From positions 30,923 to 94,922 of the forward strand of contig CAZMID010000002.1 of NCBI GenBank assembly GCA_964566255.1: DNA of 64,000 nucleotides, given 5' to 3'. This document shows positions 16,288-58,362 of this stretch, in pieces. Below the pieces are notes generated by a model. It did no database searches and was not told where the DNA came from. It saw nothing but the letters and a program-made list of their open reading frames with translations. The position numbers were made by a program, and so were the translations under genes. This DNA comes from an uncultured Planctomycetia bacterium (GTDB lineage Bacteria > Omnitrophota > Gorgyraeia > Gorgyraeales > Gorgyraeaceae). Every line of letters starts with the position of its first letter. The first letter of the stretch is position 1.

Positions 16288-16300
16288 AGGAAGACATGTC

Positions 16301-18470: not shown

Positions 18471-18516
18471 TATAGAACGTCCCTACCTAATATATTGTAT
18501 ATAATATGGAGGATAT

Positions 18517-28954: not shown

Positions 28955-29679
28955 AGAGTAACATTGAGGTAAAAGATGTGGATGTAGTTATACTTTGCGG
29001 AGGTAAAGGAGAACGCTTAAAGTCTGTTATTAATGATTGCCCAAAGCCTATGGCTGATATTAATGGCAGTCCTTTTTTGGATATTCTTATTGATTATGTG
29101 GCAAGTTTTGGATTTAGACGTTTTATATTATGTACAGGTTTTATGGGCGGGACGATCAAACGATATTATCAAAAGAGAAAGGATCCTTTAGAGGTATTGT
29201 TTTCAGAAGAGAAAGAGGCTTTAGGTACGGCTGGAGCAATAAAAAATGCAGAAACCATTATAAGAAGCAATCCTTTCCTGGTGCTTAACGGTGATTCATT
29301 TTGTCGGATTGATTTAAAGGAATTTATTGATTTTTATTTTGCTAAAAAAGCAATGTTTTCTGTAGTTCTGGTTAAAGGTGCAAAAGGATCTCGTAAACAG
29401 TGTGGTGTAGTTAAGATAGGAGCATTGCAGCAGGTTATTAGATTTGACGAGAAGGTGGAGATAGTTGGTAGTAGTTTTTTTAATGCCGGAATTTATCTTT
29501 TTGAAAGAAGTATTTTTTCCATGATCCCAAGCAATAAAAATTTCTCTTTTGAATATGATTTGTTTCCTAAAATTATTGATAGACCTTTTTATGGATTCGT
29601 CAGTGAAGAAGAGATGGTAGACATTGGGACTCCTCAAAGATATATGAAAGCAAAGAAATATTTTGAAGGAATAAGATGA
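28951..29679 (+). CDS. Sugar-phosphate nucleotidyltransferase, HddC-like (heptose 1-phosphate guanylyltransferase candidate)
   Basis: VVILCGGKGERLKSV…PKPMADINGSPFL is an NTP-transferase motif. It is translationally coupled to the HddA-like kinase. Confidence 0.62.
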   Translation: MKSNIEVKDVDVVILCGGKGERLKSVINDCPKPMADINGSPFLDILIDYVASFGFRRFILCTGFMGGTIKRYYQKRKDPLEVLFSEEKEALGTAGAIKNAETIIRSNPFLVLNGDSFCRIDLKEFIDFYFAKKAMFSVVLVKGAKGSRKQCGVVKIGALQQVIRFDEKVEIVGSSFFNAGIYLFERSIFSMIPSNKNFSFEYDLFPKIIDRPFYGFVSEEEMVDIGTPQRYMKAKKYFEGIR

Positions 29680-30803
29680 AGACATCAAATAAACTTTTAA
29701 GGTGGGTTAGGACTATTAACTATCCGTCTTATGTAATATTTTTTGTAACAGCGAAATGTAATGCTAACTGCAAGATGTGTTTCTATAAAGACAACATGGC
29801 CAAAGCTTATCAAAAAGAGGAGGAACTGTCTGTAGAAGAATATGAAAAGATTAGTAAACGCATAAAACTAATAAATATATTAGGTATTTCTGGCGGTGAA
29901 CCATTTTTGAGAAAAGATCTGGCTGATATTGTGAAAGTTATTTATAAAAATTGCTCTCCTTTAGTGGTGGATCTTCCTACAAACGGATATTACGTGAAAG
30001 ATATTTTAAGGCAATCTGAGGAAATAGCCAAGTATTGTAAGGATATGGTTGTAGATGTGCAGCTTTCTATGGATGGGCCAGAAGAAATACACAATGAAAT
30101 ACGAGGCCTTAAGGATGGATTCAGCAGAGTAAGAGAGACTTATAAGGGTTTGATTGCATTGAGAAAAAAATATAACAATTTAAAAGTGAAGGCCTGTGTC
30201 GTATATTCTCATTACAATCAGGACTCTATTGAAGAGTTATTTGATATCCTCGGTAGGGATTTTAAGGATTTGGATAGAGTTGTATTTTCTGTAGTACATG
30301 GAAGCGTGAGTAATACTGAGGCATTTTCTTTTGATTGGAATAGATATTTTAAGATTTGCGATAGAATCCGGCATGGTTCAACTGTTAAAAGTATTGGAGA
30401 TTTTCATTCTATTTTTACCATTGCTTTAAGAATGGTTAAAAATGATTTCTTGAAAGAAGTATTAAGGACGAAGGACATGTATAGAAAGTGTGGCACAGGA
30501 AAAAGGGTGATTGTCGTTAATGAAACAGGAGCGGTTTTTCCTTGTGAGCCGCTTTGGCATTCGATAGGAGAATTAAGAAATAATAATTATGATATGGGGC
30601 AGATTTTGAATTCAAAGGAGATAAAGAATTTTTATAGAAAGATTGTTAAAGAAAAATGTAACTGTCATTGGGGACTGCCGTTATCAAACACACTGATTTA
30701 TAAACCAAGATATTATCCAAAGATATTGTTTGAGATGTTTAGGGTTATCAAAAGAAGCTTTGCGAAAGAGACAATACCTTATCAGAGTAAATTATGTCAA
30801 TAA
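29676..30803 (+). CDS. Radical SAM enzyme with C-terminal Cys-rich (SPASM/twitch-like) extension
   Basis: Has the CNANCKMC (Cx3Cx2C) cluster motif and the GGEPFLRKD SAM-binding motif. The C-terminus carries extra cysteines (…CGTGKRVIVVNETGAVFPCEPL…CNCHWG). Confidence 0.72.
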   Translation: MKTSNKLLRWVRTINYPSYVIFFVTAKCNANCKMCFYKDNMAKAYQKEEELSVEEYEKISKRIKLINILGISGGEPFLRKDLADIVKVIYKNCSPLVVDLPTNGYYVKDILRQSEEIAKYCKDMVVDVQLSMDGPEEIHNEIRGLKDGFSRVRETYKGLIALRKKYNNLKVKACVVYSHYNQDSIEELFDILGRDFKDLDRVVFSVVHGSVSNTEAFSFDWNRYFKICDRIRHGSTVKSIGDFHSIFTIALRMVKNDFLKEVLRTKDMYRKCGTGKRVIVVNETGAVFPCEPLWHSIGELRNNNYDMGQILNSKEIKNFYRKIVKEKCNCHWGLPLSNTLIYKPRYYPKILFEMFRVIKRSFAKETIPYQSKLCQ

Positions 30804-31651
30804 AATTAGATTTACATATTCATTCTAAATCGCGGGGAAGAGTTTTTATAAATGCTGAGCAATTGAGAGGGTCTTTGAAACGGAATAAACTGGACGGCGT
30901 AGCAATAACTAATTTTTTTGATATTTCCCATGCACTCTGGCTCAAAGAAAAGGTTAAAGAATATATTATTATAGTCGGCCAGGAGATATGGACAAAGGAT
31001 GGCCATATAGTGGCATTGGGCATCAAGAAGAGGATTGCTGATTTTCAAACTATCCAGGAAACCACCAACTGTATACATGAACAGGGTGGGATCGCTGTAG
31101 CTGTTCACCCCTTTTTATCTTTGGGAATAGGTAAGAAGGCAATGTTATTTCCTTCCATTGATGCAGTGGAGGTCTATAACGGGGTTATGGGAAATTTTGT
31201 TATTCCTAATTATTTAGCAGAAAGAATGGCTAAAAAAATGGGAATATCACAACTTGCTTCTACAGATACGACTGATCCAAAATTGATTGGCCGCAGTTAT
31301 ACTGAAATTATGACCAAAGATCCCAAATTGATACTGAAGAGTATTTGTTCAGGGGATGTTAGATTGTTTAAAAGGGCATTGCCATTTCCATTTATATTTG
31401 TTTTTAAGGGTATTTTTAAGTTCCAAGATGTAGAACCGTGTTCAACTCATGGTGTCCCTTGTTTTGTATGTGCAAAATCAATGACTGTAAGGTTGTTTAA
31501 AGAGAAATTCAAATGTTTCGATTGCGGCAAAATAGTATTTTCGCATATAGCCTGTTCTAACGGCCATTATATTTGTGTTCCGTGTATGATAAAAAGAGGC
31601 ACTGACATAAAAGACACTTATAGTATTGAGGAAAATATCCATGCGGCATAA
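30794..31651 (+). CDS. PHP-domain metal-dependent phosphoesterase with Cys-rich C-terminal tail
   Basis: N-terminal LDLHIHSKSRG is the PHP HxH motif. Later conserved His and Asp residues are present. The last roughly 70 aa have seven Cys (CSTHGVPCFVCAKS…CFDCGK…CSNGHYICVPC), suggesting a zinc ribbon. Confidence 0.6.
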   Translation: MSIKLDLHIHSKSRGRVFINAEQLRGSLKRNKLDGVAITNFFDISHALWLKEKVKEYIIIVGQEIWTKDGHIVALGIKKRIADFQTIQETTNCIHEQGGIAVAVHPFLSLGIGKKAMLFPSIDAVEVYNGVMGNFVIPNYLAERMAKKMGISQLASTDTTDPKLIGRSYTEIMTKDPKLILKSICSGDVRLFKRALPFPFIFVFKGIFKFQDVEPCSTHGVPCFVCAKSMTVRLFKEKFKCFDCGKIVFSHIACSNGHYICVPCMIKRGTDIKDTYSIEENIHAA

Positions 31652-32747
31652 AGTTAGTATAGGTAGATATCAGGATTTTGAGAAGATTTTGACTGATATC
31701 GGAGGAATAGAGAGGTTTGTAAAAAAGGGCGATAGGGTTTTTATAAAACCTAATATCTGTGTTCCCAAATCTTATGAGACCGGGACTACAACGAATCCAT
31801 ATTTGATTGAAAGATTAATAAGGTTGCTTAAAGATATAACTGGAAATATCCAGATAGGGGATGGTCCTATCCCTGCGTTCGGAAGATTATTTTCTGTGAA
31901 CCACCCTTTGATTTATGATATTGCAAAAAAATATGATATTGATGTAATCGATCTTAATTATGCAGATAAAAAAATAGTAGGATCTTTTGCTATCTCAGCA
32001 CCGCTTTTAGAGGCAGATGTTATAATAAATATGCCTGTCTTGAAGACACATGTGAGGGCAGGGATTTCGTGTTCTCTTAAAAATATGATGGGTGCTGTAC
32101 CTCTTCGCTTGAAACACGAGATGCATAAACATGGCCTTGATAATAGAATAGTCGAGCTTGCTAAGACCATAAGGCCACATCTAAATATCGTTGATGCTGT
32201 TATATGCCAAGAAGGGGATGGTCCTACTAATGGAACACCAAAGAAATTGGGTTTGGTTATTGCAGGTGATAATCAGGTTGCAGTGGATGGTTTGTGTTGT
32301 AAAATTATGGGAATAAATCCCCAAGGCATTCTACATCTCAAATGGGCAGAGAAGGAAAAGATAGGCCTTATTCGTAATTCAGAATATATTGGGTTTAAGT
32401 CTGAATTTATCTCCAAGTTTAAAATGCCCTCTATGTACAGGAATAGACTTATGCGACTTGCTATGCAAATAGCAGAAGGACCTATTATAAAATTATTTGA
32501 AAAAAATAATGGAATTTTGATAAATAAAGAAAAATGCATTAAATGCGGATTATGCGTAAAGGCCTGTCCTGTTAGTGCCATTAGCATGAACGCAGGAGAT
32601 TATCCTATTATAGATGATAAAAAGTGTATTTTATGTCTATGTTGCCATGAGGCGTGTTTAAATAATGCTATAGCGATTAAGAAAAAAGGAATTTCAGGAT
32701 CTGGGATAATAAAAGAAACACATAAAAAGGAGAAGGTTTATGCTTAA
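31641..32747 (+). CDS. DUF362 domain protein with C-terminal 2x[4Fe-4S] ferredoxin domain
   Basis: The DUF362-type N-terminus (…KGDRVFIKPNI…) is followed by CIKCGLCVKACP and CILCLCCHEACLNNA ferredoxin motifs. The start is placed at the Met preceded by GAGGAAAAT. The ORF track offers an upstream Met at 31626. Confidence 0.62.
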   Translation: MRHKVSIGRYQDFEKILTDIGGIERFVKKGDRVFIKPNICVPKSYETGTTTNPYLIERLIRLLKDITGNIQIGDGPIPAFGRLFSVNHPLIYDIAKKYDIDVIDLNYADKKIVGSFAISAPLLEADVIINMPVLKTHVRAGISCSLKNMMGAVPLRLKHEMHKHGLDNRIVELAKTIRPHLNIVDAVICQEGDGPTNGTPKKLGLVIAGDNQVAVDGLCCKIMGINPQGILHLKWAEKEKIGLIRNSEYIGFKSEFISKFKMPSMYRNRLMRLAMQIAEGPIIKLFEKNNGILINKEKCIKCGLCVKACPVSAISMNAGDYPIIDDKKCILCLCCHEACLNNAIAIKKKGISGSGIIKETHKKEKVYA

Positions 32748-33786
32748 AAAGTTTTTAAATAATATTTTAGAATCAATTAGAAAGATGCGATTATATGCTC
32801 GAGTCGGGCTTACGAGCATGACTCCTTTAAAGGCATACGTGATGTTGCGTTATTGGATCTTAACCAACATTTTTAAAAAGGAGATTCCCTGGGTTATAGA
32901 GCTTTCAGTTACTTATAGGTGTCAGTGTAGGTGCGAACACTGTTCAGTATCAAATTATATTTCTGAAGCCGGTGAAAAAAAAGAGCTGACGAAAGATCAA
33001 ATAGAAGATGTTTTACAGCAGGCTGTTAAGATGGGAATACCCAAGGTAGATTATTTTGGAGGCGAGCCTTTATTACGAAAGGATATTGTTGATTTAGTTA
33101 AAATTGGCGCTAGGAAAGGTCTGTATATGTCAATAACTACCAATGGTTGGCTTTTAACACAAGACATGGCAAAAAAATTAAAGAAGGCAGGGATAAGCTG
33201 TATGAATATCAGCATAGATTCTACGTCTAAAGAAGAACATGACAGGCTTAGGGTGTTACCCGGACTTTATAAAAGGGCAGTGGATGCCATTAGATATTGC
33301 CATAAAGAGCGGATTTCTTGTGTTGTTTCTACATATGTAACTCGTGATAGGATAGTAAATTTTGGTGTAGGTGAATTAGATAATAGTGATTTGACTAAAA
33401 TTCTTTCCTTGTCAAGGGAGCTCAAGGCTTCTGGAGTAAGGGTATTATTTCCTATAATTTCAGGTGAATGGGTAAGTGAAGACAAAAAGGAATTTACTCA
33501 GGAAGAAGTAAGGCGTGTTATTGATGGTATTGACAGTTCTTTTGCTTTTATTGAAGGGGCATATTCAGTAAAGAATGGAAGGAAGATTTGTCAATCTTTA
33601 CAGGGAAAGATGTTTAATATCTCACCTTATGGTGAAGTACAACTTTGCATTGCCTTTACTGATGTTTTTGGGAATGTTAAGGATGCCTCTCTGAAGGATT
33701 TATTAAAGGGGATGTATACTCACCCCACATATATTAGAAACAAAGATTCATATTGTTGTAGTACTACTGGTTTAAAGAGATGTTAA
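32740..33786 (+). CDS. Radical SAM enzyme (twitch/SPASM-like C-terminus)
   Basis: Has the CQCRCEHC cluster motif (Cx3Cx2C counted from the first Cys) and DYFGGEPLLRKD. The C-terminus carries Cys (…CQSLQGKMFNISPYGEVQLCIAF…CCS). Confidence 0.72.
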   Translation: MLKKFLNNILESIRKMRLYARVGLTSMTPLKAYVMLRYWILTNIFKKEIPWVIELSVTYRCQCRCEHCSVSNYISEAGEKKELTKDQIEDVLQQAVKMGIPKVDYFGGEPLLRKDIVDLVKIGARKGLYMSITTNGWLLTQDMAKKLKKAGISCMNISIDSTSKEEHDRLRVLPGLYKRAVDAIRYCHKERISCVVSTYVTRDRIVNFGVGELDNSDLTKILSLSRELKASGVRVLFPIISGEWVSEDKKEFTQEEVRRVIDGIDSSFAFIEGAYSVKNGRKICQSLQGKMFNISPYGEVQLCIAFTDVFGNVKDASLKDLLKGMYTHPTYIRNKDSYCCSTTGLKRC

Positions 33787-33804
33787 AAGGTATAGGATAA
33801 AGTA

Positions 33805-35328
33805 ATGAACATTACGTTGATTCGTCCTCCAGCATATAGTACAGGATTGATGGGCGCTCAATTGGTGCCTTTTCTTGGAATTGCCTATATTGGTGCTGTT
33901 GCAAAAAAAGCAGGGCATAATGTTGATATTATAGATATGTGTGGAGAGGATATTGCTCGCACAGAGATTATACAGGATAGATATGTAGCTTATGGCATGT
34001 CTTTTGCTTCACTTGATAAACGGCTTAAGACTTCAGAGGTAATCGGTTTTACCTGTATGTTTTCCCAGGACTGGGTATTTCATAAGGCATTGATTGAATA
34101 TGTGCATAGGCTTTCTCCTGATAGTGTCTTCATTGCAGGAGGAGAACATATATCAGCTTTACCAGAGTATTGTTTAGACGATTGTCCCGAGTTAGATATC
34201 TGTGTAGTCGGTGAAGGAGAGGATGTATTTACACATCTTATCAGTACGCTTGAAGAAAAAGGTAGACTTTCTAATGTCCCAAGTCTTGTTTATCGTGACT
34301 GCAAAAATGGTGTTTATCACAGTACAAAAAGGTCTAATCGGATTAAAGATATAGATAGGATTCCTTTACCCATATGGGATCTTACCCCGATGGAAAATTA
34401 TCTCTCAAGGGAGTTAAATTATCATATACAGCGCGGTCGCACTATCCCAATGGTTGCAACTAGAGGATGCCCTTATAACTGTACTTTTTGTTCCAGTTTT
34501 AATATGTGGGGCAGACTTTGGATTCCGCGTAATCCTCGACTGGTCGTAGATGAAATGGAGTATTATATTGATAAGTATAAGGCAGACAATTTTGTTTTTT
34601 CAGAACTCACTACTATAGTAAGGAGAAAAGAGATTGTAGATTTGTGTAATGAAATTATAAATCGTAGAATTAATGTTACATGGCAACTTCCAACCTTGAG
34701 GACAGAGGATGTAGATTACGATATATTGAAACTTATGTATCAGGCAGGTTGTAGAGATTTAGATTTTGCTATAGAGTCAGGATCAAGGAAAGTGTTACTT
34801 AGTGTAAATAAGAGTAATAATCCGAATAAGATATTTTCTTTAGCTGGAGATGCAGTAGACCTGGGAATGAATCTGAGCACTAATATAGTTGTGGGCTTGC
34901 CACAAGAAAGATTTAGAGATTTTTTTAAAACTTATTGGCTGGTTGTAAAACTGGCAATTAGGGGCTCACAGGAATTAAACGTGTTTCCGTTTGTCCCTTA
35001 TCCAGGCTCAGAATTGTTTAAAGATTTTCTTAGAGATAAAAGGATTTCATTAAATGATGATTATTTTTTGAATCTCTTTGGTTATGGAAATTTGAGCAAG
35101 GCAATATCGTGGTCAGAACATTTTGGGCCAAGGACATTAAACTTCATGAGGCTTTTTTTATTGGTTAATTTTTATGGATTGATGTTGATTGCGCATCCGC
35201 GGCGCATTCTACAACTCATTAGTAATACTGTACGTGGCAGAGCCACTACAAAATTAGAAAATGTACTAAAGAAGGTATTTAAAAATGTCAATGTCTATGT
35301 TTCCAGTAGAGCAGGAAATACAGAATAA
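33805..35328 (+). CDS. B12-binding-domain radical SAM enzyme
   Basis: N-terminal Rossmann-like cobalamin-binding-domain pattern, then TRGCPYNCTFCSS (Cx3Cx2C). Confidence 0.75.
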   Translation: MNITLIRPPAYSTGLMGAQLVPFLGIAYIGAVAKKAGHNVDIIDMCGEDIARTEIIQDRYVAYGMSFASLDKRLKTSEVIGFTCMFSQDWVFHKALIEYVHRLSPDSVFIAGGEHISALPEYCLDDCPELDICVVGEGEDVFTHLISTLEEKGRLSNVPSLVYRDCKNGVYHSTKRSNRIKDIDRIPLPIWDLTPMENYLSRELNYHIQRGRTIPMVATRGCPYNCTFCSSFNMWGRLWIPRNPRLVVDEMEYYIDKYKADNFVFSELTTIVRRKEIVDLCNEIINRRINVTWQLPTLRTEDVDYDILKLMYQAGCRDLDFAIESGSRKVLLSVNKSNNPNKIFSLAGDAVDLGMNLSTNIVVGLPQERFRDFFKTYWLVVKLAIRGSQELNVFPFVPYPGSELFKDFLRDKRISLNDDYFLNLFGYGNLSKAISWSEHFGPRTLNFMRLFLLVNFYGLMLIAHPRRILQLISNTVRGRATTKLENVLKKVFKNVNVYVSSRAGNTE

Positions 35329-36145: not shown

Positions 36146-36156
36146 GGGGATTTGAA

Positions 36157-37098: not shown

Positions 37099-37099
37099 C

Positions 37100-37885: not shown

Positions 37886-37898
37886 AAGGTAGATTCTA

Positions 37899-39541: not shown

Positions 39542-39542
39542 A

Positions 39543-41099: not shown

Positions 41100-41114
41100 A
41101 AGGAGTGTCTTCTC

Positions 41115-42566: not shown

Positions 42567-42570
42567 AACT

Positions 42571-43506: not shown

Positions 43507-43516
43507 AATTCTAAAA

Positions 43517-44530: not shown

Positions 44531-44549
44531 TAAGGATTGGAGTGAGGTT

Positions 44550-48300: not shown

Positions 48301-48303
48301 TTA

Positions 48304-51553: not shown

Positions 51554-51567
51554 AAAAGGGGATTATC

Positions 51568-52752
51568 ATGAAAAGACTATCGAAGATTACAGATGGATTG
51601 ATTGGCCAACCTATGTTTAAACTTCTTGTAAAAGTAAAGGAGATGGAAGAAAGAGGCGCTAGGATCTTTCATTTTGAAATAGGGGATTCGGATTTTAGGG
51701 CGCATCAACATATTGTAGAAGCAACCAAAAAGGCGCTCGATAATGATAAAACTCATTATGTTTCATCAATAGGTATATCAGAATTAAGAGAGGCTATTTG
51801 CGATTCTACAGAAGAGACATTGGGTTTTAGACCAGATCTAGACCAGGTGGTTGTTATGCCGGCCAATGGTATTATTGATTTTGTAATGCGCTGTGTTGCT
51901 GAACCAGGTGACGAGGTTCTGTATCCTGACCCAGGGTTTTCTACATATCTAGCTGTAACTAATTATACAGGCATTAAAAAGGTCGGGATCCCTGTAAGGG
52001 AAGAAAATAGATTCCACATGGAACCAGAAGAAATAAGAAGACGGATAACTGATAAAACGCGACTTCTAATTATTAACTCTCCACAAAACCCAACAGGTGC
52101 TGTGATGAGCAAAAAAGATGTAGAAGAAATCGCCTTAATAGCCCAAGAGAATGATATCTATATTTTGAGTGATGAGATATATTCAAAGGTTATTTATGGG
52201 AAGACACATTATTCACCCAGTTTTCTAGATAGATGTTTAGACAGGACTATTATTTTAAATGGGTTTGCAAAAAATTATTCAATGCCTGGATGGAGATTAG
52301 GTTATGCGATAGGTCCAAAAGAGGTTATCAAAAAGATGGGCATCCTTTTTCAGACAATTTATTCTTGCACACCTCCTTTTATTCAATATGGAGGGATTGC
52401 AGCACTAAGAGGAGATCAGAGAGCTATCGGAGAAAGGATACAGAAATATAAAGCACTAAGAGATCTAATTGTTAAGGGGTTAAATGAGATTCCTGGGGTA
52501 TCTTGCATGGTTCCAGAGGGTGCTTGTTATGTTTTTCCGAATATAAAAGGGACTGGGATGGACAGTGTTCAGTTTGCTGATTTTGTACTGGAGAAGGCAG
52601 GAGTAGCCCTTTTACCTGGAACGTGTTTTGGTGAGTATGGTGAGGGACATGTAAGACTTTGTTACACGAGACATCCAGAAGTTATTAAAGAGGCATGCGA
52701 AAAAATGAAAAAGGCATTCATGGAGAAGAAAAATGAAGTCTGTATTCATTAA
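51568..52752 (+). CDS. Class I/II PLP-dependent aminotransferase (aspartate aminotransferase-like fold type I)
   Basis: Length and motifs (…IINSPQNPTGAV…, …NGFAKNYSMPGWRLGYAIG…) match the pattern with the conserved PLP-binding Lys. The C-terminal HVRL is present. Confidence 0.8.
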   Translation: MKRLSKITDGLIGQPMFKLLVKVKEMEERGARIFHFEIGDSDFRAHQHIVEATKKALDNDKTHYVSSIGISELREAICDSTEETLGFRPDLDQVVVMPANGIIDFVMRCVAEPGDEVLYPDPGFSTYLAVTNYTGIKKVGIPVREENRFHMEPEEIRRRITDKTRLLIINSPQNPTGAVMSKKDVEEIALIAQENDIYILSDEIYSKVIYGKTHYSPSFLDRCLDRTIILNGFAKNYSMPGWRLGYAIGPKEVIKKMGILFQTIYSCTPPFIQYGGIAALRGDQRAIGERIQKYKALRDLIVKGLNEIPGVSCMVPEGACYVFPNIKGTGMDSVQFADFVLEKAGVALLPGTCFGEYGEGHVRLCYTRHPEVIKEACEKMKKAFMEKKNEVCIH

Positions 52753-53887
52753 TGATATTACATTGAGAGATGGGGAACAGGCTGCAGGAGTTAATTTTTT
52801 CCCTGAGGAAAAATTAAAGATTGCCGAAAGCTTGGTTAAATTGGGCGTCCCTATAATTGAAGCTGGGTTTCCAATAGCTTCAGACCAGGACGCTAAAGGC
52901 GTGGAGCTGGTTGCTAAAGAATTCGGAAAAGATATTATCATTAGCGCTATGTGTAGAGCTGTATTTAAAGATATAGAAGTAGCGAGTAAATCATTAGGAG
53001 ATGCCCCTAAAAGAAGGATACAGGTTGTTATGGGTACCTCCGACATACATTTAAAGCATAAGTTTAACATATCAAGAGAAAAGGCCTTAGATATCTCAGT
53101 AGAGTCGGTTAGATATGCTTGTAAGTTTTCTAACGATATAGAGTTTGCGGCCGAAGATTCTACAAGAAGCGATCTAAGCTATCTTATAGAGGTGTGCAAG
53201 GCTTGTGTTGCAGCAGGTGCAAAGACAATAGAACTTCCTGATACTGTTGGATATGCTACACCAGAAGAATATTTCAATATGGTAGCTTCAGTTGTAAAAT
53301 CCCTTCCTTCAGAAGTGATTGTTTCTACGCACTGTCATAATGATCTTGGTATGGCAACAGCAAATACACTCGCAGGCATTCAGGCAGGTGCCAAGCAGGC
53401 AGAAGTTACCATAAATGGAATTGGAGAAAGAGTTGGGAATGCATCTTCAGAAGAGGTCATTATGGCTTTAAGGGCGAGGAGAGATTTTTATAAGATCGAT
53501 GTAGACTATGTCAATGCCAAAGAGATTATGAAGTTGAGTAAGTTGATTGAGGAACTTTCCCAGATAAAGATCGCTCATAATAAGGCTGTTGTTGGAAAAG
53601 GGGCATTTTTACATGAATCAGGCATACATCAAGATGGGCTTATAAAGTCACCTCAGACGTATCAACTTTTAAACCCAGGAGACATTGGTCTAGAGGGGTA
53701 TGAGTTAGTTATAGGAAAACTCTCAGGGAAGAATGCCTTAAAAGAGAGGATGAATATTATTGGGATTGGGTTAGGCGATAAAGATATGGCAGATTTTTCT
53801 AGGTTTTTTAAAGATCATGTTGCAAAAAAGAAATTTATTACAGATGATGATATATCAAATCTATACAAGAGATGGAAAAACAGCTAG
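52733..53887 (+). CDS. HMGL-like DRE-TIM metallolyase (2-isopropylmalate/homocitrate/citramalate synthase family) lacking a LeuA regulatory domain
   Basis: INDITLRDGEQAAGVNF… matches the (L)RDGEQ motif, and …HCHNDLGMATANTLAGIQAGA… matches HxH. It is 384 aa, catalytic TIM barrel plus a short subdomain. Confidence 0.75.
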   Translation: MKSVFINDITLRDGEQAAGVNFFPEEKLKIAESLVKLGVPIIEAGFPIASDQDAKGVELVAKEFGKDIIISAMCRAVFKDIEVASKSLGDAPKRRIQVVMGTSDIHLKHKFNISREKALDISVESVRYACKFSNDIEFAAEDSTRSDLSYLIEVCKACVAAGAKTIELPDTVGYATPEEYFNMVASVVKSLPSEVIVSTHCHNDLGMATANTLAGIQAGAKQAEVTINGIGERVGNASSEEVIMALRARRDFYKIDVDYVNAKEIMKLSKLIEELSQIKIAHNKAVVGKGAFLHESGIHQDGLIKSPQTYQLLNPGDIGLEGYELVIGKLSGKNALKERMNIIGIGLGDKDMADFSRFFKDHVAKKKFITDDDISNLYKRWKNS

Positions 53888-54693
53888 TAGAAATATTTAA
53901 AAAAATGTGTTTGATCCGCTATTTTGAGCTCCAGGTTATTGAGCCCAGAAAGAATGGTCTTACGCCTGGCCCTGTTTATTTGTCAGTAGGACAGGAGGCT
54001 ATTTCTAGCGCAATTTCAATGCTTACAAAAGGATATTCAGTTTTTGCACAGCATCGCTGTCACTCAGTGTATTTAGCATATGGTGGAGATCCTGGACGTC
54101 TTGTAGACGAGTTGTTTGGTCGAAGTTCAGGGTGTTGTGGGGGTAAGGGTGGCTCACCGTGCATACAAGATTTAAATATTCCTATGTATGGGCATCATGG
54201 GTTAATAGGAGAGAATATACCTTTGGCGACTGGTTATGCATTGGCTACGGGAAAACCTACAGTTGCCTATTTTGGCGATGCAGCATCTGAAGAAGATTAT
54301 GCATTGACTTCATTTGGTTTTGCTACAACTCATAAATTACCTATTTTATATGTTTGCGAAGATAACGATTTATCCATTTTAACTCCTATTAAGGACAGAA
54401 GAGATTGGAATGTTCATGATGTGACCACAGCTATGGGATTAAAGACCGAAGTGATTGTAGATGATCCTAAAGTAATCCTGGATACTGTTGGGGGGCTGAT
54501 TGAAAAGCTTCCTGCATTTGTCAATATTCAGACCACCAGGCACCTTTGGCATGAAGGGGGAGGGATCGATGGTCCTCCTGTGAGAGATAGAATAGCTGAG
54601 ATGAGAAAAATAATACCCGATGCATCAAAAATAGAAGATGAAATAAAAACATATGTTGAGGAACTATGGCAAAGACAGTCGCAGAAACTATAA
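53872..54693 (+). CDS. Thiamine-diphosphate-dependent E1 alpha-like subunit (short form)
   Basis: …CLIRYFELQV…PVYLSVGQEAI… matches the E1α N-terminal motif. TPP-binding is YFGDAASEEDYALTSFGFA…CEDND. It is 273 aa. Confidence 0.68.
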   Translation: MEKQLVEIFKKMCLIRYFELQVIEPRKNGLTPGPVYLSVGQEAISSAISMLTKGYSVFAQHRCHSVYLAYGGDPGRLVDELFGRSSGCCGGKGGSPCIQDLNIPMYGHHGLIGENIPLATGYALATGKPTVAYFGDAASEEDYALTSFGFATTHKLPILYVCEDNDLSILTPIKDRRDWNVHDVTTAMGLKTEVIVDDPKVILDTVGGLIEKLPAFVNIQTTRHLWHEGGGIDGPPVRDRIAEMRKIIPDASKIEDEIKTYVEELWQRQSQKL

Positions 54694-55553
54694 AAGAAGT
54701 TACTCGCAGGCATTTAGAGGAAAACAAAGGTTTATTGTTCGGGCAGTCCATAACAGCTGTTGGATGGGTAAATAATACAGTGCCTGACTGTAGAAATATT
54801 GTTGAATTTCCTATGTCTGATGTGTCCAATATGGGGATAGCTTGTGGTGCAGCAATTAGTGGGCGGCGACCTATTATTGTTATTCGTTTTCAGGATTTTA
54901 TGTGGCTCAATAGCAGTACCTTGGTAAATTATGCTGCCAAGTCCAAGGATATTATGGGCATACCGACGCCAATATTTGTAAGGGCTTTGGCCTTGGATAA
55001 TGCAGGCTGTGTCCATTCAGGTGTCCTCCACGGTATATTTATGCATATGCCGGGTTTCAGGGTTTGTTCTCCTATGACACCAAAAGAATATGAGGAAGCC
55101 TGGGATGATTTTATGGCTCATGACGATCCAATGATTGTTAGCGAACATAGAAAGAGTTTCAATAATACTGAGGAGTTTGCAAATACAAACAATAAAGCAG
55201 ATGTAACATTGATTTCGATATCATCGGCACGTTTTAATGTGATTAAGGCTGCATCTATACTTGAGAAAGAAGGAATTAGATGTAATCTTGCTCATGTTAT
55301 GTGGCTTAAACCTTTCAAAAAGGATCATATCTTGGAGGCGTTGAACAATAGCAAAAGAGGTTTGGTAATAGATGCTGGTTTTGAAATATGCGGGGCTTCT
55401 CAATCTATAGCTTATGAACTTATGTTGGAGACTGGTAAGCCTGTGAAGGCTTTAGGATTAGAAGATCGTTCAGTAGGTGTGGGTCTTGAATCCCGAAACC
55501 CAACACCATCTGCTGAAAGAATAGTTGCAGGAGTCAAAGATTTTTTACAATAG
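54666..55553 (+). CDS. E1 beta-like / transketolase pyrimidine-binding subunit (short form)
   Basis: Its position after the E1α-like gene, the fold-compatible pattern (…GIACGAAISGRRPII…) and 295 aa support the call. The assignment is weaker than for the pair at 43517 and 44550. Confidence 0.6.
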   Translation: MAKTVAETIKEVTRRHLEENKGLLFGQSITAVGWVNNTVPDCRNIVEFPMSDVSNMGIACGAAISGRRPIIVIRFQDFMWLNSSTLVNYAAKSKDIMGIPTPIFVRALALDNAGCVHSGVLHGIFMHMPGFRVCSPMTPKEYEEAWDDFMAHDDPMIVSEHRKSFNNTEEFANTNNKADVTLISISSARFNVIKAASILEKEGIRCNLAHVMWLKPFKKDHILEALNNSKRGLVIDAGFEICGASQSIAYELMLETGKPVKALGLEDRSVGVGLESRNPTPSAERIVAGVKDFLQ

Positions 55554-55562
55554 AGGTAACTC

Positions 55563-56930
55563 GTGTTAGATATTTTATTAGTAAATCCTAGTAATCGACT
55601 TTCTCAATTTGGTGGGGTTTCCAAATATGCTACTATCGCTCAGCCATTAGGAATAACTATGCTTGCTGCTTACATAAGAAAGCATAGCTTTTCTGTTGAG
55701 ATCCTTGATGCAGAGGTTTTAGATCTTATCCCTGAGAGGGTTATAGACGAGATCGTGCGCCGCAACCCAAGATTTGTAGGTATCACTGCTTTTACGACAA
55801 AGATGACAGCAGCTAATAGAATATTTACTCTTTTAAAAGAAAAGGCACCTTATATAAAAACTATTATTGGAGGACATCATCCCTCTGCAATACCTGAAGA
55901 GACATTAAAAGAGTCAAATGTCGATTTTGTTGTTAAAGGTGAAGGGTACAAATCTATAGTAGATATACTTAGTGGGAGGAAAGACCCAATTCAAACAGCA
56001 GAACTGATGAAGGATATAAATGAACTTCCTCTTCCTGCGTGGGATTTGTTGCCTATGGATAAATATAGAGCTCATCACTGGCATACATGGGGTATTGGTC
56101 AGGCGAATTCATGTGCCTTGATCTATACATCTCTCGGATGCCCTTTTCAATGTAAATTCTGCAGTGTTTCTGTAGTCTATGGCAAGAGGATTTATAGAAA
56201 AAAGAGCCCTGAGCGCGTAATCCAGGATTTTGACGTGCTTTATAATAAGTATCACATTAAGCATATTGAGATTATAGACGATACATTTACCTTGGATAGG
56301 ACTCATGTAGAAAAGATATGTGACCTTTTGATTGAACGGAAGTACAATTTTAATATGTGGGCATTTTCAAGGACAGACACCACAGATCCTTATCTTATGG
56401 AGAAGATGAAAAAGGCAGGTATTAATTGGGTTTTTATGGGGATAGAAGCTGGTAATAGTAAAGTTTTGGATTCTGTGCTCAAAAAACAAAATTTGGAACA
56501 GATCCGTAATGCTATTGATATTGCGCATAAAGCTGGAATGAATGTCGGCACAAATTACATATTTGGCCTTCCTGATGACAGCTTTGAGACTATGCAGGAT
56601 ACACTTGATTTAGCATTGGAGCTTAATACAGAATGGAGTAATTTTTTTATAGCCATGCCTTATCCAGGGACAGAGATGTATGGTAAATCCAGAGCTGAAG
56701 ATTTACCTCAAGAATGGGAACAATATGGCTTCTTTGCACCGAATGCAAGGACATTACCTACGAGATATGTAAGTGGTGAGGATGTGGTGAGATTTAGAGA
56801 TAAGGCATTCCAGACTTTTTTTTCAAATCGGAATTATCAGGATATGATAGAAAAAAAGTTTGGCATGAAAAAATATATACAAGATATGCTGAAAAAGAAA
56901 ATCGGAAGGGATTATGAAACAAAGAGATAA
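55563..56930 (+). CDS. B12-binding-domain radical SAM enzyme (paralog of the ORFs at 41115 and 56914)
   Basis: GTG start. …IIGGHHPS…, KYRAHHWHTWG, TSLGCPFQCKFCSV. Confidence 0.74.
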   Translation: MLDILLVNPSNRLSQFGGVSKYATIAQPLGITMLAAYIRKHSFSVEILDAEVLDLIPERVIDEIVRRNPRFVGITAFTTKMTAANRIFTLLKEKAPYIKTIIGGHHPSAIPEETLKESNVDFVVKGEGYKSIVDILSGRKDPIQTAELMKDINELPLPAWDLLPMDKYRAHHWHTWGIGQANSCALIYTSLGCPFQCKFCSVSVVYGKRIYRKKSPERVIQDFDVLYNKYHIKHIEIIDDTFTLDRTHVEKICDLLIERKYNFNMWAFSRTDTTDPYLMEKMKKAGINWVFMGIEAGNSKVLDSVLKKQNLEQIRNAIDIAHKAGMNVGTNYIFGLPDDSFETMQDTLDLALELNTEWSNFFIAMPYPGTEMYGKSRAEDLPQEWEQYGFFAPNARTLPTRYVSGEDVVRFRDKAFQTFFSNRNYQDMIEKKFGMKKYIQDMLKKKIGRDYETKR

Positions 56931-58362
56931 TTTACTGATATTAAAGCCAGGCGCACAAGAGGAACTCTATCAAAAATTGAGTGAATCTTTATCAGGACTT
57001 GAGCCATCGTTATGGTCAGCATTGCTTGCTGCGTTCATAAGGGAGAAAGGCTTCAAGGTTAATATAGTAGATGCCGAAGTAGAATATGAAAGGTTGATAC
57101 CTGTTGTAACAGCCGAAATGCCAAAATTGGTTGCTATTGTAGCCTCTGGAACAAATCCTTCAGCATCTACAATGAATATGGTAGGCGTAAGAAATTTAGT
57201 CCAGGATATAAAAAGAGTGAATAAGGATTTACCTATTATATTAATAGGTCTTCATCCATCAGCATTACCCAGGCAGACTTTATTAGAAGAACCTGTGGAC
57301 ATGGTATGTGAGGGAGAGGGATTTTATACGTTATTGGATTTACTTTCAGATGTTGATTATAAAGATATTAAGGGTTTATGGTATAGAAAAGGAAAAGAGA
57401 TTCTTTCTAATCCTAGAGCTGAATTGGTTGACCCCAATGAACTACCTATGCCGGCATGGGAACTGATGTCTATGCATAAATATAGAGCTCATAATTGGCA
57501 TTGTTTTGGTCATACAGACGAAAGAAGTCCTTACGGAGTTATCTATACAAGCCTGGGTTGTCCTTTCAATTGTTCGTTCTGTTGCATAAATGCTATTTTT
57601 GGAGTACACAAAATACGATATAGAAACCCTAAGAAGGTCGTAGAGGAAATAGATTATCTTGTGAAGAACTATAATATTAAAAATTTTAAGATTATTGATG
57701 AAATGTTTGATTTAAATGATAACCATGTGATTGAGCTTTGCGATCTTCTTATAGAGAGGGACTATGGTTTAAACATATGGGCTTATACTAGAGTCGATAC
57801 AATGAATGAGAAGAAATTGAAAAGAATGAAACAGGCTGGGATAAATTGGCTGGGCATAGGTTTTGAGTCTGGTAATAGAGGAATTCGAGATACCGCTACT
57901 AAGGGTAGATTTGATAATGAGAAAATGAGACAGGCTGTAAAGATGATAAGAGATGCAGATATATATCTGGGTGGGAATTTTATCTTTGGCCTTCCCGGTG
58001 ATTCCCTTGAAACCATGCAGCAGACCTTAGATTTAGCAAAGGAATTTAATTGTGAATATGCAAATTTCTATGTTGCTATGGCTTATCCCGGATCCAAACT
58101 TTATGAAGAAGCCGTGGCTAAAAATCTTCCTTTGCCTGATTCATGGCTTGGTTATTCACAGTTTAGTTACGAGACACAACCTTTACCGACAGAATCTCTA
58201 TCTCCTTCTGAAATCCTGCGTTTCAGGGATAAGGCCTTTAATGAATTCTATAGCAGCAAATCCTATCAGGATATGATTTTGAAGAAATTTGGAGAAGAGA
58301 CACTTCAGCATGTAAAAGATATGCTTAAACATAGATTAAAAAGGCAATTATTGAGTGATTAG
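56914..58362 (+). CDS. B12-binding-domain radical SAM enzyme (paralog of the ORFs at 41115 and 55563)
   Basis: …LIGLHPS…, KYRAHNWHCFG, TSLGCPFNCSFCCI. It overlaps the upstream paralog by 17 nt. Confidence 0.75.
   Translation: MKQRDNLLILKPGAQEELYQKLSESLSGLEPSLWSALLAAFIREKGFKVNIVDAEVEYERLIPVVTAEMPKLVAIVASGTNPSASTMNMVGVRNLVQDIKRVNKDLPIILIGLHPSALPRQTLLEEPVDMVCEGEGFYTLLDLLSDVDYKDIKGLWYRKGKEILSNPRAELVDPNELPMPAWELMSMHKYRAHNWHCFGHTDERSPYGVIYTSLGCPFNCSFCCINAIFGVHKIRYRNPKKVVEEIDYLVKNYNIKNFKIIDEMFDLNDNHVIELCDLLIERDYGLNIWAYTRVDTMNEKKLKRMKQAGINWLGIGFESGNRGIRDTATKGRFDNEKMRQAVKMIRDADIYLGGNFIFGLPGDSLETMQQTLDLAKEFNCEYANFYVAMAYPGSKLYEEAVAKNLPLPDSWLGYSQFSYETQPLPTESLSPSEILRFRDKAFNEFYSSKSYQDMILKKFGEETLQHVKDMLKHRLKRQLLSD

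Follow-up and report, generated by a model that had tools for sequence, protein, structure and literature searches.

What does a bacterium make with ten radical S-adenosylmethionine (SAM) enzymes encoded among genes for nucleotide sugars and glycan transfer? This question is raised by a stretch of 64,000 nucleotides, referred to here as the window, from an uncultured bacterium deposited as Planctomycetia and placed by GTDB in the Omnitrophota family Gorgyraeaceae (assembly GCA_964566255.1, contig CAZMID010000002.1, positions 30,923 to 94,922 of the forward strand). An earlier note, made from the letters of this DNA, had described ten radical SAM enzymes, seven of them with B12-binding domains, within about 29 kb, and had proposed a capsule or O-antigen type locus for a glycan with multiple C-methylated, epimerised or otherwise radical-tailored sugars made under anaerobic conditions. 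That description is right in outline, with corrections on the chemistry, on the type of locus and on the identities of a DegT-family gene and a HemN-type gene. The segment is probably the central part of a glycan island of the cell envelope that exceeds 60 kb and decorates the envelope with unusual sugars; it is an enlarged form, with several modules, of a sugar-tailoring cassette. All of its parts come from known superfamilies, and radical tailoring of sugars is already known from antibiotic pathways; for the surface-glycan setting no report was found.

The radical SAM array and its conserved cassette

All ten open reading frames (ORFs), named here by their start positions, lie on the + strand (Table 1). 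Each carries its CxxxCxxC motif at the expected position, the start of the core domain, and each exceeds the gathering threshold of the Pfam family Radical_SAM (PF04055; 51.8-91.8 bits vs 29.5, E 1e-13 to 7e-26), so that coordinates, motifs and profile scores together confirm the count. The N-terminal B12-binding-type domain is likewise borne out in seven of them (33805, 39543, 41115, 48304, 50117, 55563 and 56914), with PF02310 matches in the N-terminal third of 38.5-91.5 bits against a threshold of 32.1. Radical SAM genes account for 10 of the 25 genes and 49.8% of the bases between 29676 and 58362, and for none of the 29 genes in the rest of the window (Fisher p = 1.4e-4 for local enrichment). 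This density was understated by the earlier note. Three further radical SAM genes, encoding a 522-aa B12 protein, a 510-aa B12 protein and one twitch/SPASM protein, lie within 9 kb past the window end at window-equivalent positions 68050, 70811 and 72333, and the total is at least 13 radical SAM genes in approximately 43 kb when genes beyond the window are counted. The genes beyond the window were read from a contig of another assembly, identical over 8.4 kb save for one mismatch, on which the DegT gene at 63041 is followed by three short-chain dehydrogenases/reductases (SDRs), a second DegT, a B12 radical SAM enzyme, a methyltransferase, a GNAT protein, another B12 radical SAM enzyme and the twitch/SPASM enzyme.

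As had been claimed, the radical SAM genes stand among genes for nucleotide sugars and glycans: between 18517 and 63008 the genes run in one direction with intergenic gaps of at most 35 nt, and many of them overlap. The window as a whole is almost entirely coded on the + strand, with a G+C content of about 36% and a steadily positive GC skew. Recent tandem duplication was rejected as the origin of the density because the B12-type paralogues share merely 22-39% identity, and there is little DNA-level similarity within the window (68-73% among three glycosyltransferase family 2, or GT2, genes, plus three matches of 33-116 nt between B12 genes). Chimeric assembly, which the earlier note had raised as a possible objection, was rejected because contigs of four assemblies (ENA ERZ23499057 and ERZ23499079; JGI 3300009374 and 3300009405) repeat the sequence with at most one mismatch over 23805-45328, 43706-51705 and 54682-64000, and because the only junction without an independent contig, at about 54350-54682, falls inside an E1alpha/E1beta pair that unrelated genomes also keep together and in the same order with respect to its flanking genes. 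No long DNA repeats were found in the window. The independent assemblies break at about 43.7, 51.7 and 54.35-54.9 kb, in or beside genes for thiamine diphosphate (TPP)-dependent enzymes, and these shared break points may reflect strain-level variation of a hypervariable glycan island.

The array is built around a cassette that is much more widespread. Homologues of the 56914 protein number in the thousands; the 120 nearest are 54-78% identical, and those with names come mostly from metagenome-assembled genomes (MAGs) of Omnitrophota. A scan of one genome per species for its orthologues yielded 72 loci, in MAGs labelled Omnitrophota, Planctomycetota, Nitrospirota, Verrucomicrobiota, Acidobacteriota, Chloroflexota, Desulfobacterota, Methylomirabilia, Proteobacteria and others, and the cassette around these orthologues is conserved in at least eight phylum-level lineages. 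Its content comprises a GHMP kinase, a nucleotidyltransferase, SDRs, a His-type sugar 3-dehydratase, a TPP-dependent pair and the B12-domain radical SAM enzyme. Neighbours were counted in the 38 loci with full flanks by comparing their ORFs with the window proteins; the counts are lower bounds, as the simple ORF caller fails on high-GC loci. A TPP pair, for which E1alpha/beta, short E1alpha/beta and split transketolase types appear to be interchangeable, was found in 32 of the 38, followed by a DegT-family protein (29), a GHMP kinase (28), an SDR of the 25258 type (27), an Fcl-like SDR (22), a nucleotidyltransferase (18) and a short GT2 (12). Orthologues of the 25258-type SDR adjoining 56914 orthologues are 50-74% identical to the window protein, and other radical SAM enzymes of the window also have cassette-adjacent orthologues (39543, 64%; 48304, 52%; 50117, 57%; 55563, 82%).

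What distinguishes the window is the degree of expansion: related loci mostly hold one or two radical SAM genes per 21 kb, with a maximum of five, compared with eight in 21.9 kb here. The earlier statement that no comparable locus has been described holds in that no published description was found, and is qualified by smaller versions in Elusimicrobia, another Omnitrophota MAG and Magnetospirillum sp. UT-4. The proposed restriction to anaerobic conditions is weakened, because the core cassette also occurs in MAGs of Nitrospira, Verrucomicrobia and Vicinamibacteria.

Enzyme families of the array

For the seven B12-domain enzymes, C-methylation had been proposed from the domain architecture. None of them reaches the cutoff of a curated NCBIfam B12 radical SAM family (45-170 bits vs 250-775), and none is a member of the curated methyltransferase families PhpK, Sden_1168, HpnR, TsrM, KedN5, QCMT and RiPP C-methyltransferase (RiPP, ribosomally synthesised and post-translationally modified peptide). 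The best NCBIfam matches of 39543, 41115, 50117, 55563 and 56914 are BchE, HpnJ and ApyD, whereas 33805 and 48304 score best against methyltransferase families, far below cutoff (Sden_1168, 153 vs 575; PhpK, 124 vs 600). Membership of known families, which the earlier note had named as an objection to its proposal, does not fit: all scores are far below the equivalog cutoffs (BchE at most 160 vs 481, HpnJ at most 170 vs 578, HpnR at most 115 vs 650, MiaB/RimO at most 55 vs 251). A phosphonate pathway, considered on account of the PhpK and Sden_1168 matches, was dropped, as no phosphoenolpyruvate mutase or phosphonopyruvate decarboxylase domain was found.

The closest structural relative of the core enzyme 56914 is AprD4, a radical SAM 1,2-diol dehydratase acting on an aminoglycoside sugar. 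Against the AprD4 family NF033070 the seven ORFs score 44.5-91.0 bits (85.7 for 56914), below the cutoff of 500. In sequence searches of the PDB, AprD4 was the best match of 56914 and 33805, and the second of 48304 after 9ccb. The predicted model of 56914 (pLDDT, its predicted confidence score, 91.3; alignment of 37 sequences) has the overall fold and domain arrangement of AprD4, which Foldseek ranks first (6fd2, E 8e-26, template-modelling scores 0.72/0.77 over about 495 columns) ahead of the cobalamin enzymes MgmA, TsrM, CysS, OxsB and TokK; for this one modelled protein, the nearest solved structure is thus not a cobalamin-binding methylase. AprD4 and ArsL have related domains yet bind no cobalamin (PMC12931638). 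The argument from B12 domain to C-methylation is therefore unsafe, at least for the core subfamily (41115, 55563 and 56914), whose best profile matches, HpnJ, BchE and ApyD, are not established methyltransferases. Judging from the model, radical deoxygenation or rearrangement of a sugar would be at least as likely as C-methylation for these three.

The resemblance to AprD4 and its partner AprD3 includes similar size, an N-terminal B12-like Rossmann domain, a sugar ring as the substrate of AprD4 and SDR reductases nearby; several SDRs adjoin the 56914-type enzyme in the cassette, and an AprD3-like identity was assigned to none. The two differ in that identity is only 21-22%, that HpnJ and BchE score higher by sequence profile and that the substrate of AprD4 is a pseudodisaccharide, whereas here it would presumably be a nucleotide sugar. 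The class B methyltransferases (TokK, TsrM, CysS, MgmA/QCMT, PhpK) share with the seven ORFs a B12-type Rossmann domain joined to a radical SAM core, but no window ORF reaches their curated cutoffs, and no description of a class B enzyme from a cell-surface glycan locus was found in the literature searched. GenK, GenD1 and Fom3 act on sugars or CMP-linked substrates.

The two enzymes without a B12 domain at the start of the array, 29676 and 32740, bear on the SPASM/twitch class that the earlier note had brought up. The Pfam SPASM threshold of 21.5 is barely reached (21.6 and 22.0, respectively), the CX2CX5CX3C SPASM motif is absent from both, and each has four C-terminal cysteines (C272/C290/C328/C330 in 29676 and C284/C303/C339/C340 in 32740), a number that agrees with the approximately four cysteines expected for the single auxiliary cluster of BtrN-type proteins; they are thus probably twitch-like and not full SPASM proteins. 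They resemble BtrN and BlsE in having a radical SAM core and a four-cysteine C-terminal domain, the latter with CX18C spacing in the two window proteins, and BlsE, a sugar decarboxylase, is the best solved relative of 32740. They differ in that matches are weak (at most 55 bits) and no curated family cutoff is reached. A further weak match in the PDB links 29676 to an enzyme forming glycerol dialkyl glycerol tetraethers (GDGTs).

The HemN-like enzyme 46825 had been compared with class C methyltransferases, and it is instead a full-length HemN relative: ChuW/HutW (135.6 vs a cutoff of 400) and NocN (9p2u; 63 bits vs 233 for HemN) are far weaker matches, and it is not close to the class C group of ChuW, NosN and NocN. 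It passes the HemN equivalog TIGR00538 by 8 bits (332.8 vs 324.95), and residues 16-467 align to residues 6-446 of 1OLT, coproporphyrinogen III dehydrogenase of E. coli (E 4e-68), with the CxxxCxxCxC motif and the HemN_C domain kept. It differs from that enzyme at the N-terminus, where AYDYTDYPHK, with the clade-specific motif DYTDYPHK, stands in place of GPRYTSYPTA, a motif that we take to carry functional weight in HemN. Among its 120 closest homologues, 103 have [YFW]PHK, the other full-length ones have YPTK or YPNK, and none has GPRY. It also differs in genomic context. Members of the clade lie in sugar loci in all seven contexts found, L085/L086 among them being the window itself; besides the window, these contexts are a metagenome contig (L082), one MAG each of Omnitrophota (L083) and Elusimicrobia (L088, where 10 kb hold five radical SAM genes), Magnetospirillum sp. 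UT-4 (L084) and a 6.4-Mb genome in which a GmhA-like SIS protein and a GHMP kinase are encoded (L087). B12 radical SAM genes adjoin the HemN-like gene in five of the six homologue contexts. An orthologue of 48304 (597-612 aa, 40-43% identity) is its direct neighbour in L082 and L084, and in L083 a PhyH gene separates it from a 622-aa 48304 orthologue. The clade motif, the sugar-locus contexts and the 48304-type neighbour argue against a role as coproporphyrinogen oxidase and for a "YPHK" clade distinct, as far as its sequences indicate, from the HemN of haem synthesis. The equivalog model is thus an annotation trap, as it labels this sugar-associated clade coproporphyrinogen oxidase.

Several further observations concern this clade. 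The longest form of 46825 begins at a TTG that overlaps the upstream stop codon; the true start is probably the ATG at 46861 (479 aa), as it is preceded by GGGAG and was chosen by two gene callers. A PhyH-family Fe(II)/2-oxoglutarate oxygenase gene directly follows the HemN-like gene in L083 (11413-12186) and L087 (9455-10372), and the two are fused in one 742-aa protein (P0190); by analogy with HemF and HemN, they could be an oxygen-dependent and oxygen-independent pairing for one step. In Magnetospirillum sp. UT-4, an alphaproteobacterial strain with a name, the related locus (GCA_902729435.1, CACVCG010000046.1, 56593-78005) has five radical SAM genes within 11 kb and includes a 675-aa radical SAM-sulfotransferase fusion, a GT41 (OGT-like) glycosyltransferase, a TauD oxygenase and an aldo-keto reductase; it shares with 51568-55553 of the window a sub-module of an isopropylmalate synthase (IPMS)-like enzyme, a short E1alpha/beta pair, an SDR and a class I/II aminotransferase.

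Beside the HemN-like gene, 45602 had been called a DegT aminotransferase, and it is instead a pyridoxamine phosphate (PMP)-dependent sugar 3-dehydratase, because histidine replaces the catalytic lysine and its nearest relatives are E1 and ColD. The best solved relatives are CDP-6-deoxy-4-hexulose 3-dehydrase E1 (3bcx/3bb8, E 1e-59) and ColD (2gms). His195 aligns with His220 of E1, in place of the Schiff-base lysine that the H220K mutant entry 3bb8 has there, and this histidine is kept in 50 of 60 DegT-like ORFs of related loci, including all 16 with at least 45% identity. A cysteine stretch, CKCKEC...C, aligns with the CYCAPGCDNTC region of E1, which presumably contains iron-sulfur ligands, and no E3 reductase is present. 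Against the curated RfbH equivalog it scores 277.9 with a cutoff of 423, and is thus a relative rather than an equivalog.

Three TPP enzymes with intact TPP-binding motifs complete the catalytic inventory. One is a split transketolase, with an N subunit (35285-36145) and a pyrimidine-binding plus C-terminal subunit (36157-37098), which stands in for the E1 pair in many related cassettes. The others are a pyruvate dehydrogenase (PDH)-type pair without E2 or E3, like AviB1/AviB2, and a shorter pair that is kept beside the IPMS-like gene in four related loci (L004, L008, L010, L084), with L082 having the pair without the IPMS-like gene. AviB1/AviB2 and Pau11/Pau12 are E1alpha/beta-like pairs proposed to add a C-4 acetyl branch to antibiotic sugars from pyruvate, and YerE performs TPP-dependent two-carbon transfer for yersiniose in Gram-negative O-antigens (PMC4753412). 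In the Omnitrophota locus L004, a YerE-type protein (TPP_enzyme_N/M/C, 596 aa; 8214-10004) lies between two B12 radical SAM genes, besides an E1alpha/beta pair, which strengthens the link to yersiniose-like C-branching. Because the His-type 3-dehydratase is conserved in it, the cassette would, by analogy, follow the logic of 3,6-dideoxyhexose formation and subsequent TPP-dependent two-carbon transfer; relative to the YerE and AviB/Pau precedents, the new element is the added radical SAM enzyme or enzymes.

The Yersinia 3,6-dideoxyhexose/yersiniose pathway (DdhA-D, E1, YerE, YerF) is a close parallel in that it shares a nucleotidyltransferase, a 4,6-dehydratase-type SDR, a ketoreductase, a His-type PMP 3-dehydratase with a putative E1-like cysteine motif and a predicted TPP-dependent two-carbon transfer step. 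The differences are also clear: the TPP enzymes here are E1alpha/beta or split transketolase and not the flavoprotein YerE (the YerE type being present in L004), activation looks GDP-type with a GHMP kinase, the E3 reductase is missing, from one to thirteen radical SAM enzymes are added, and transfer is predicted to proceed through polyprenyl-phosphate GT2s and GT-C enzymes rather than a Wzy-type O-unit. The AviB and Pau systems likewise have stand-alone PDH-type E1alpha/E1beta pairs without E2 or E3 beside deoxysugar genes, but they belong to actinomycete avilamycin and paulomycin antibiotic clusters, whereas here three TPP pairs lie in a probable envelope glycan island of a Gram-negative-type bacterium.

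Glycan transfer, sugar supply and upstream genes

The earlier assignment to a capsule or O-antigen type locus does not hold for the window. From the components of Group 1 (Wzy-dependent) systems, Wza and Wzi are present by Pfam, but no initiating phosphoglycosyltransferase, Wzx, Wzy, Wzc or GT1/GT4 glycosyltransferase was found in the window, and these may lie outside it. The transfer genes are instead three short GT2s and GT-C-type proteins. The short GT2s share 47-61% mutual identity, have no transmembrane segment and best match dolichyl-phosphate (Dol-P) and undecaprenyl-phosphate glycosyltransferase families (92-116 bits vs cutoffs of 325-529). The 26196 protein is a GT-C-type enzyme by Pfam, and its orthologues adjoin the cassette in L004. 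The 59136 protein belongs to a tiny family with seven homologues (38-62% identity) among 5.8 billion clustered proteins, and profile comparison of this family with 26196 and with the 508-aa protein 61482 gave no sequence-level relation; the GT-C assignment of 59136 thus rests on its predicted fold. The proteins at 61482-63008 and 23921-24526 are candidates for flippase, polymerase or ligase roles, and no dedicated flippase of the ArnE/F or GtrA type was recognised among the window ORFs.

With three short GT2s, three polytopic membrane proteins and no repeat-unit machinery, the layout resembles several modules of the Arn, Gtr or PpgS kind rather than a repeat-unit capsule or O-antigen cluster. 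In the Arn (ArnC/ArnT), Gtr (GtrB/GtrC) and mycobacterial PpgS/Rv3779 systems, a polyprenyl-phosphate sugar synthase works with a GT-C transferase, and a GT-C-fold transferase is also encoded here. The window differs in that its short GT2s are without the C-terminal transmembrane helices of ArnC and GtrB, in that ArnE/F and GtrA were not found, and in that three putative pairs of this kind occur in one array.

Table 1. Features of the window and of the module that follows it; positions are those of the window unless stated.
Feature	Position	Strand	Basis or remark
Nucleotide-sugar supply block	11559..19452	+	Pfam, NCBIfam
Wzi-like outer-membrane protein	19431-20993	+	Pfam Wzi 197.6 bits
Wza-like exporter, Poly_export and six SLBB domains	21004-23904	+	Pfam SLBB 201.6, Poly_export 64.6
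201-aa protein, two hydrophobic segments, weak Wzz hint	23921..24526	+	No family match
Short soluble GT2 "a" (242 aa), polyprenyl-phosphate glycosyltransferase type	24533..25261	+	Best NCBIfam AglJ, dolichyl-phosphate hexose transferase, below cutoff
SDR epimerase/dehydratase, cassette member	25258..26190	+	Pfam, NCBIfam
Polytopic GT-C-type glycosyltransferase (585 aa)	26196..27953	+	Pfam PMT_2 31.0 vs 26.1; 13 hydrophobic segments
GHMP sugar kinase, closest HddA (heptose-7-phosphate kinase)	27950..28954	+	NCBIfam HddA 133.5 bits, below cutoff
Sugar-1-phosphate nucleotidyltransferase, closest HddC and mannose-1-phosphate guanylyltransferase	28951..29679	+	Pfam, NCBIfam
Radical SAM enzyme 1, twitch-like C-terminal domain (CNANCKMC)	29676..30803	+	Pfam, Cys count
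PHP/CehA-like metallohydrolase	30794..31651	+	NCBIfam CehA_McbA 47.3 bits vs 80; PHP_C below Pfam threshold
DUF362 and 2x[4Fe-4S] ferredoxin fusion	31626..32747	+	Pfam DUF362 157 bits plus Fer4
Radical SAM enzyme 2, twitch-like (CQCRCEHC)	32740..33786	+	Best solved relative BlsE, weak
B12 radical SAM enzyme 3 (CPYNCTFC)	33805..35328	+	Best family Sden_1168 P-methyltransferase, far below cutoff
Split transketolase/DXS-like TPP enzyme	35285..37098	+	Pfam, NCBIfam; GDG...N TPP motif
Classical SDR ketoreductase	37100..37885	+	Pfam, NCBIfam
Short soluble GT2 "b" (223 aa)	37899..38570	+	Best NCBIfam AglJ, Dol-P hexose transferase, PpgS, ArnC, below cutoff
Fcl-like SDR (epimerase/reductase)	38570..39541	+	Pfam; NCBIfam Fcl 166 bits
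B12 radical SAM enzyme 4 (CPFQCGFC)	39543..41099	+	64% orthologue beside cassette in L006
B12 radical SAM enzyme 5 (CPYKCNFC)	41115..42566	+	Same subfamily as 55563, 56914
GDP-L-fucose-synthase-like SDR, 3,5-epimerase/4-reductase type, cassette member	42571..43506	+	NCBIfam Fcl 415 vs 500
PDH-type E1alpha (43517-44530) and E1beta (44550-45605) TPP pair	43517..45605	+	Pfam, NCBIfam; GDG...NN motif
DegT-family PMP-dependent sugar 3-dehydratase (E1/ColD type)	45602..46828	+	PDB matches 3bcx/3bb8, 2gms; alignment
HemN-like radical SAM enzyme 6 (CKKLCYYCIC)	46825..48300	+	Pfam HemN_C; NCBIfam
B12 radical SAM enzyme 7 (611 aa, CHARCSFC)	48304..50139	+	Pfam, NCBIfam, PDB comparison
B12 radical SAM enzyme 8 (CPYQCTYC)	50117..51553	+	57% orthologue in L043
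Class I/II (aspartate-type) aminotransferase	51568..52752	+	Pfam, NCBIfam; syntenic in L004, L008, L010, L084
Isopropylmalate/homocitrate-synthase-like catalytic domain, without regulatory domain	52733..53887	+	Pfam HMGL-like 272 bits and HCS_D2; NCBIfam 474 vs 532
Second, shorter E1alpha/E1beta-like TPP pair (53872-54693, 54666-55553)	53872..55553	+	Pfam, NCBIfam; GDA...ND motif
B12 radical SAM enzyme 9 (CPFQCKFC)	55563..56930	+	82% orthologue in L008, L010
B12 radical SAM enzyme 10 (CPFNCSFC), conserved core enzyme of cassette	56914..58362	+	Model closest to AprD4
Short soluble GT2 "c" (234 aa)	58396..59100	+	Pfam, NCBIfam
772-aa GT-C-fold membrane glycosyltransferase, C-terminal TPR-like domain	59136..61454	+	Predicted fold; no Pfam match
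508-aa polytopic membrane protein	61482..63008	+	No Pfam match; 8 hydrophobic segments
DegT-family aminotransferase, Lys retained	63041..64000, ends 64015	+	Opens next module
Next module	L081 7431-17398 (window-equivalent 63041-73008)		Two DegT, three SDRs, SAM methyltransferase, GNAT, three radical SAM genes

Among the sugar-activation genes, the GHMP kinase followed by the nucleotidyltransferase recalls the GDP-heptose system (GmhA/HddA/GmhB/HddC), with HddA and HddC as the respective closest families, and in three relatives (L082, L083, L087) HAD phosphatases or an SIS isomerase accompany the kinase and nucleotidyltransferase. The window pair differs in scoring far below the equivalog cutoffs and in having no GmhA or GmhB in the window, only the PHP-like hydrolase 30794, a weak candidate for a sugar-phosphate phosphatase on its family match. 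The GDP-octose activation of lincosamide biosynthesis (LmbP/LmbK/LmbO) is a comparable kinase/nucleotidyltransferase system. The DUF362-ferredoxin protein, whose gene stands between those of the twitch enzymes 29676 and 32740, could plausibly serve as a dedicated electron donor, either to the radical SAM enzymes or to the E1-type dehydratase, which has no E3 partner.

The first genes of the window are dnaK/dnaJ and housekeeping genes, followed by those for two GGDEF proteins, a ROK kinase and an LptD-like protein, the last of which implies a diderm host, and everything from 11559 onward is glycan-related. The supply block encodes a TuaD-like UDP-glucose 6-dehydrogenase (UGDH), an RmlC-like cupin, an RmlA-like nucleotidyltransferase, the dTDP-glucose 4,6-dehydratase RmlB (NCBIfam 447 vs a cutoff of 365), a second nucleotide-sugar dehydrogenase, an epimerase, a GDP-mannose 4,6-dehydratase (17260-18258; 399.7 vs 415) and a UXS/ArnA-like SDR. 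The upstream order ROK-LptD-UGDH is syntenic with Omnitrophota loci L027, L063 and L066, and several Omnitrophota loci keep ROK-LptD-UGDH-UGDH-SDR. The island therefore appears to occupy a conserved chromosomal site with variable content, in agreement with the strain-variable polysaccharide cassettes that have been reported for Omnitrophota genomes. The two GGDEF diguanylate cyclase genes are adjacent (5784-8478), lie just upstream of the ROK/LptD/glycan region and encode proteins 40% identical over the aligned GGDEF region, one of them with a GAF domain.

With regard to regulatory and other non-coding elements, an Rfam scan of the whole window (1-64000) detected no family at gathering thresholds, the cobalamin riboswitch included, and a tRNA scan of the same range detected none. 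Promoter and terminator counts in the 44-64 kb region were no higher than in shuffled sequence.

Proposed pathway, alternative explanations and significance

The interpretation considered most probable is that of an envelope glycan island, on one strand and tightly packed, which starts at about 11.5 kb of the window beside the LptD-like gene and continues past the window end. Domain content, the histidine substitution, the GT-C fold, synteny and taxonomic distribution are direct results of the comparisons made. The following steps are all inferred from the chemistry of the enzyme families. The HddA-like GHMP kinase would phosphorylate a sugar phosphate at C1, the PHP-like hydrolase might then remove a phosphate, and the HddC/ManC-like nucleotidyltransferase would activate the product, probably as a GDP-sugar, with the GDP-mannose 4,6-dehydratase as a second entry point. 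SDR enzymes would produce a 4-keto-6-deoxy intermediate, the C3 hydroxyl of which would be removed by the His-type PMP enzyme 45602. The TPP pairs (two E1alpha/beta, one split transketolase) would then add two-carbon units for extension or branching, and Fcl-like and SDR reductases would set the stereochemistry by reduction or epimerisation. Unactivated carbons of the nucleotide sugars or their side chains would be remodelled by the ten radical SAM enzymes, for which mixed radical chemistries are expected and not seven methylations: methylation-type reactions may be carried out by 33805 and 48304, AprD4/HpnJ-type radical dehydration or rearrangement by the 41115/55563/56914 subfamily, and BtrN/BlsE-type oxidation or decarboxylation by the twitch enzymes 29676 and 32740. 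The HemN-like enzyme may work with the 48304-type enzyme. The DUF362-ferredoxin is the likely reductant for the radical SAM enzymes. The three short GT2s would load the finished sugars onto polyprenyl phosphate and, after flipping, the GT-C-fold enzymes (26196, 59136 and perhaps 61482) would transfer them to an envelope acceptor outside the membrane. As the GT2/GT-C sets and the TPP pairs each number three, the array may make several sugars in parallel.

A number of points weigh against this scheme. No B12-domain or twitch ORF reaches a curated family cutoff, so that every step is read at the level of families, and no product or substrate is assigned for any enzyme of the array. The seven B12-type domains may or may not bind cobalamin, and no cobalamin riboswitch is present. 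A flippase, an initiating phosphoglycosyltransferase, Wzx, Wzy and Wzc were all missing from the window, and the assignment of 30794 as a PHP-like phosphatase is weak (47 bits vs 80). The IPMS-like enzyme and the class I/II aminotransferase at 51568-53887 fit a nucleotide-sugar pathway poorly and hint at keto-acid or amino-acid chemistry. In addition, the closest related loci are labelled Planctomycetota or Pirellulales, and the placement of the host relies on homologue labels and synteny.

The main alternative is that the array, in or beside a glycan island, makes a diffusible saccharide or an amino-acid-derived secondary metabolite, such as an aminoglycoside-like or branched-sugar antibiotic. 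In its favour, the core enzyme has AprD4 of apramycin biosynthesis as its nearest solved relative, E1alpha/beta pairs of this kind occur in the avilamycin and paulomycin clusters (PMC4753412), the IPMS-like and aminotransferase genes suggest keto-acid or amino-acid building blocks, the Magnetospirillum locus has its aldo-keto reductase, radical SAM-sulfotransferase fusion and TauD oxygenase, and classical repeat-unit glycosyltransferases are absent from the window. We nevertheless regard it as unlikely: three polyprenyl-phosphate-type GT2 genes and GT-C genes, both characteristic of periplasmic envelope glycosylation, are scattered among the radical SAM genes, the array runs on from Wzi/Wza without a break, in a chromosomal location occupied by glycan genes in other Omnitrophota, and no transporter, regulator, resistance gene, non-ribosomal peptide or polyketide synthase or cyclitol synthase was found at 24.5-63 kb. 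It is quite improbable, in turn, that the HemN-type gene is an ordinary haem coproporphyrinogen III dehydrogenase present by accident and the density partly coincidental. The equivalog score and the full-length alignment with its conserved cluster motif would favour such a role. Apart from the clade motif, this would have to be reconciled with a position between the 3-dehydratase gene (overlapping it, or 32 nt away if the start is 46861) and a B12 gene (3-nt gap), with 44-55% identical homologues in sugar-tailoring loci in all six further contexts, with a 48304-type enzyme as direct neighbour in two of these and at a distance of one gene in another, and with a window that holds no other haem gene.

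Modification of membrane lipids or of the polyprenyl carrier by the B12 radical SAM enzymes, in the manner of HpnJ/HpnR, ladderane or GDGT synthesis, could be argued from the HpnJ scores (up to 169.8 bits), from a "lipid biosynthesis B12-binding/radical SAM" family (up to 107 bits) and from the weak match of 29676 to the GDGT-forming enzyme. All of these scores are far below cutoffs, no squalene/hopene cyclase, fatty-acid or isoprenoid enzymes were found in the window or in 80-odd related loci, and the genes kept nearby encode sugar kinases, nucleotidyltransferases, SDRs and a sugar 3-dehydratase, which makes this explanation highly improbable. Scarcely credible is the view that the radical SAM enzymes serve in peptide or protein maturation (RiPP or post-translational) and cluster by chance with glycan genes. 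ApyD is among the best NCBIfam matches of 33805, 39543 and 55563, and the twitch/SPASM enzymes weakly match many peptide maturase families, but again every score falls far short of its cutoff, proteases and ABC exporters are absent and the neighbours are sugar enzymes across many phyla. A RiPP cluster was dropped because the gaps of at most 35 nt leave no space for precursor-peptide genes.

If the envelope glycan interpretation is followed further, a broader, tentative reading is possible: the window may be the most extreme example seen of a hitherto unrecognised, phylum-spanning way of building envelope sugars, in which radical SAM enzymes remodel nucleotide-sugar skeletons instead of ordinary methyltransferases, oxidoreductases and aldolases. 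The combination of 3-dehydratase, TPP pair and AprD4-like enzyme might yield higher-carbon or C-branched polydeoxy sugars, and the YPHK clade with its approximately 600-aa B12 enzyme might carry out a new side-chain reaction, for which an oxidative decarboxylation analogous to the propionate-to-vinyl conversion of HemN is one candidate. Caryophyllose, erwiniose and yersiniose belong to the class of higher-carbon or C-branched polydeoxy sugars, and the biosynthesis of the first two is, to our knowledge, largely unknown. A few antibiotic pathways (gentamicin, apramycin, butirosin and blasticidin) are known to tailor sugars with radical SAM enzymes. In the literature searched, radical SAM enzymes were not described as regular parts of envelope glycan loci, nor were the multi-phylum cassette, the sugar-associated HemN-like clade and a density of at least 13 radical SAM genes.

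For enzymology and glycobiology, the interest of these results is tempered by the reliance on uncultured genomes. The five-radical-SAM sub-module version in Magnetospirillum sp. UT-4 offers a tractable entry, which makes part of the scheme testable, and the array offers many candidate enzymes for functionalising the C-H bonds of sugars. The locus, its core cassette and the HemN-like clade point to many as yet unassigned enzymes, which would make deoxy, branched or alkylated envelope sugars, and they bear on how surfaces are built and varied in little-known phyla such as Omnitrophota and Elusimicrobia.

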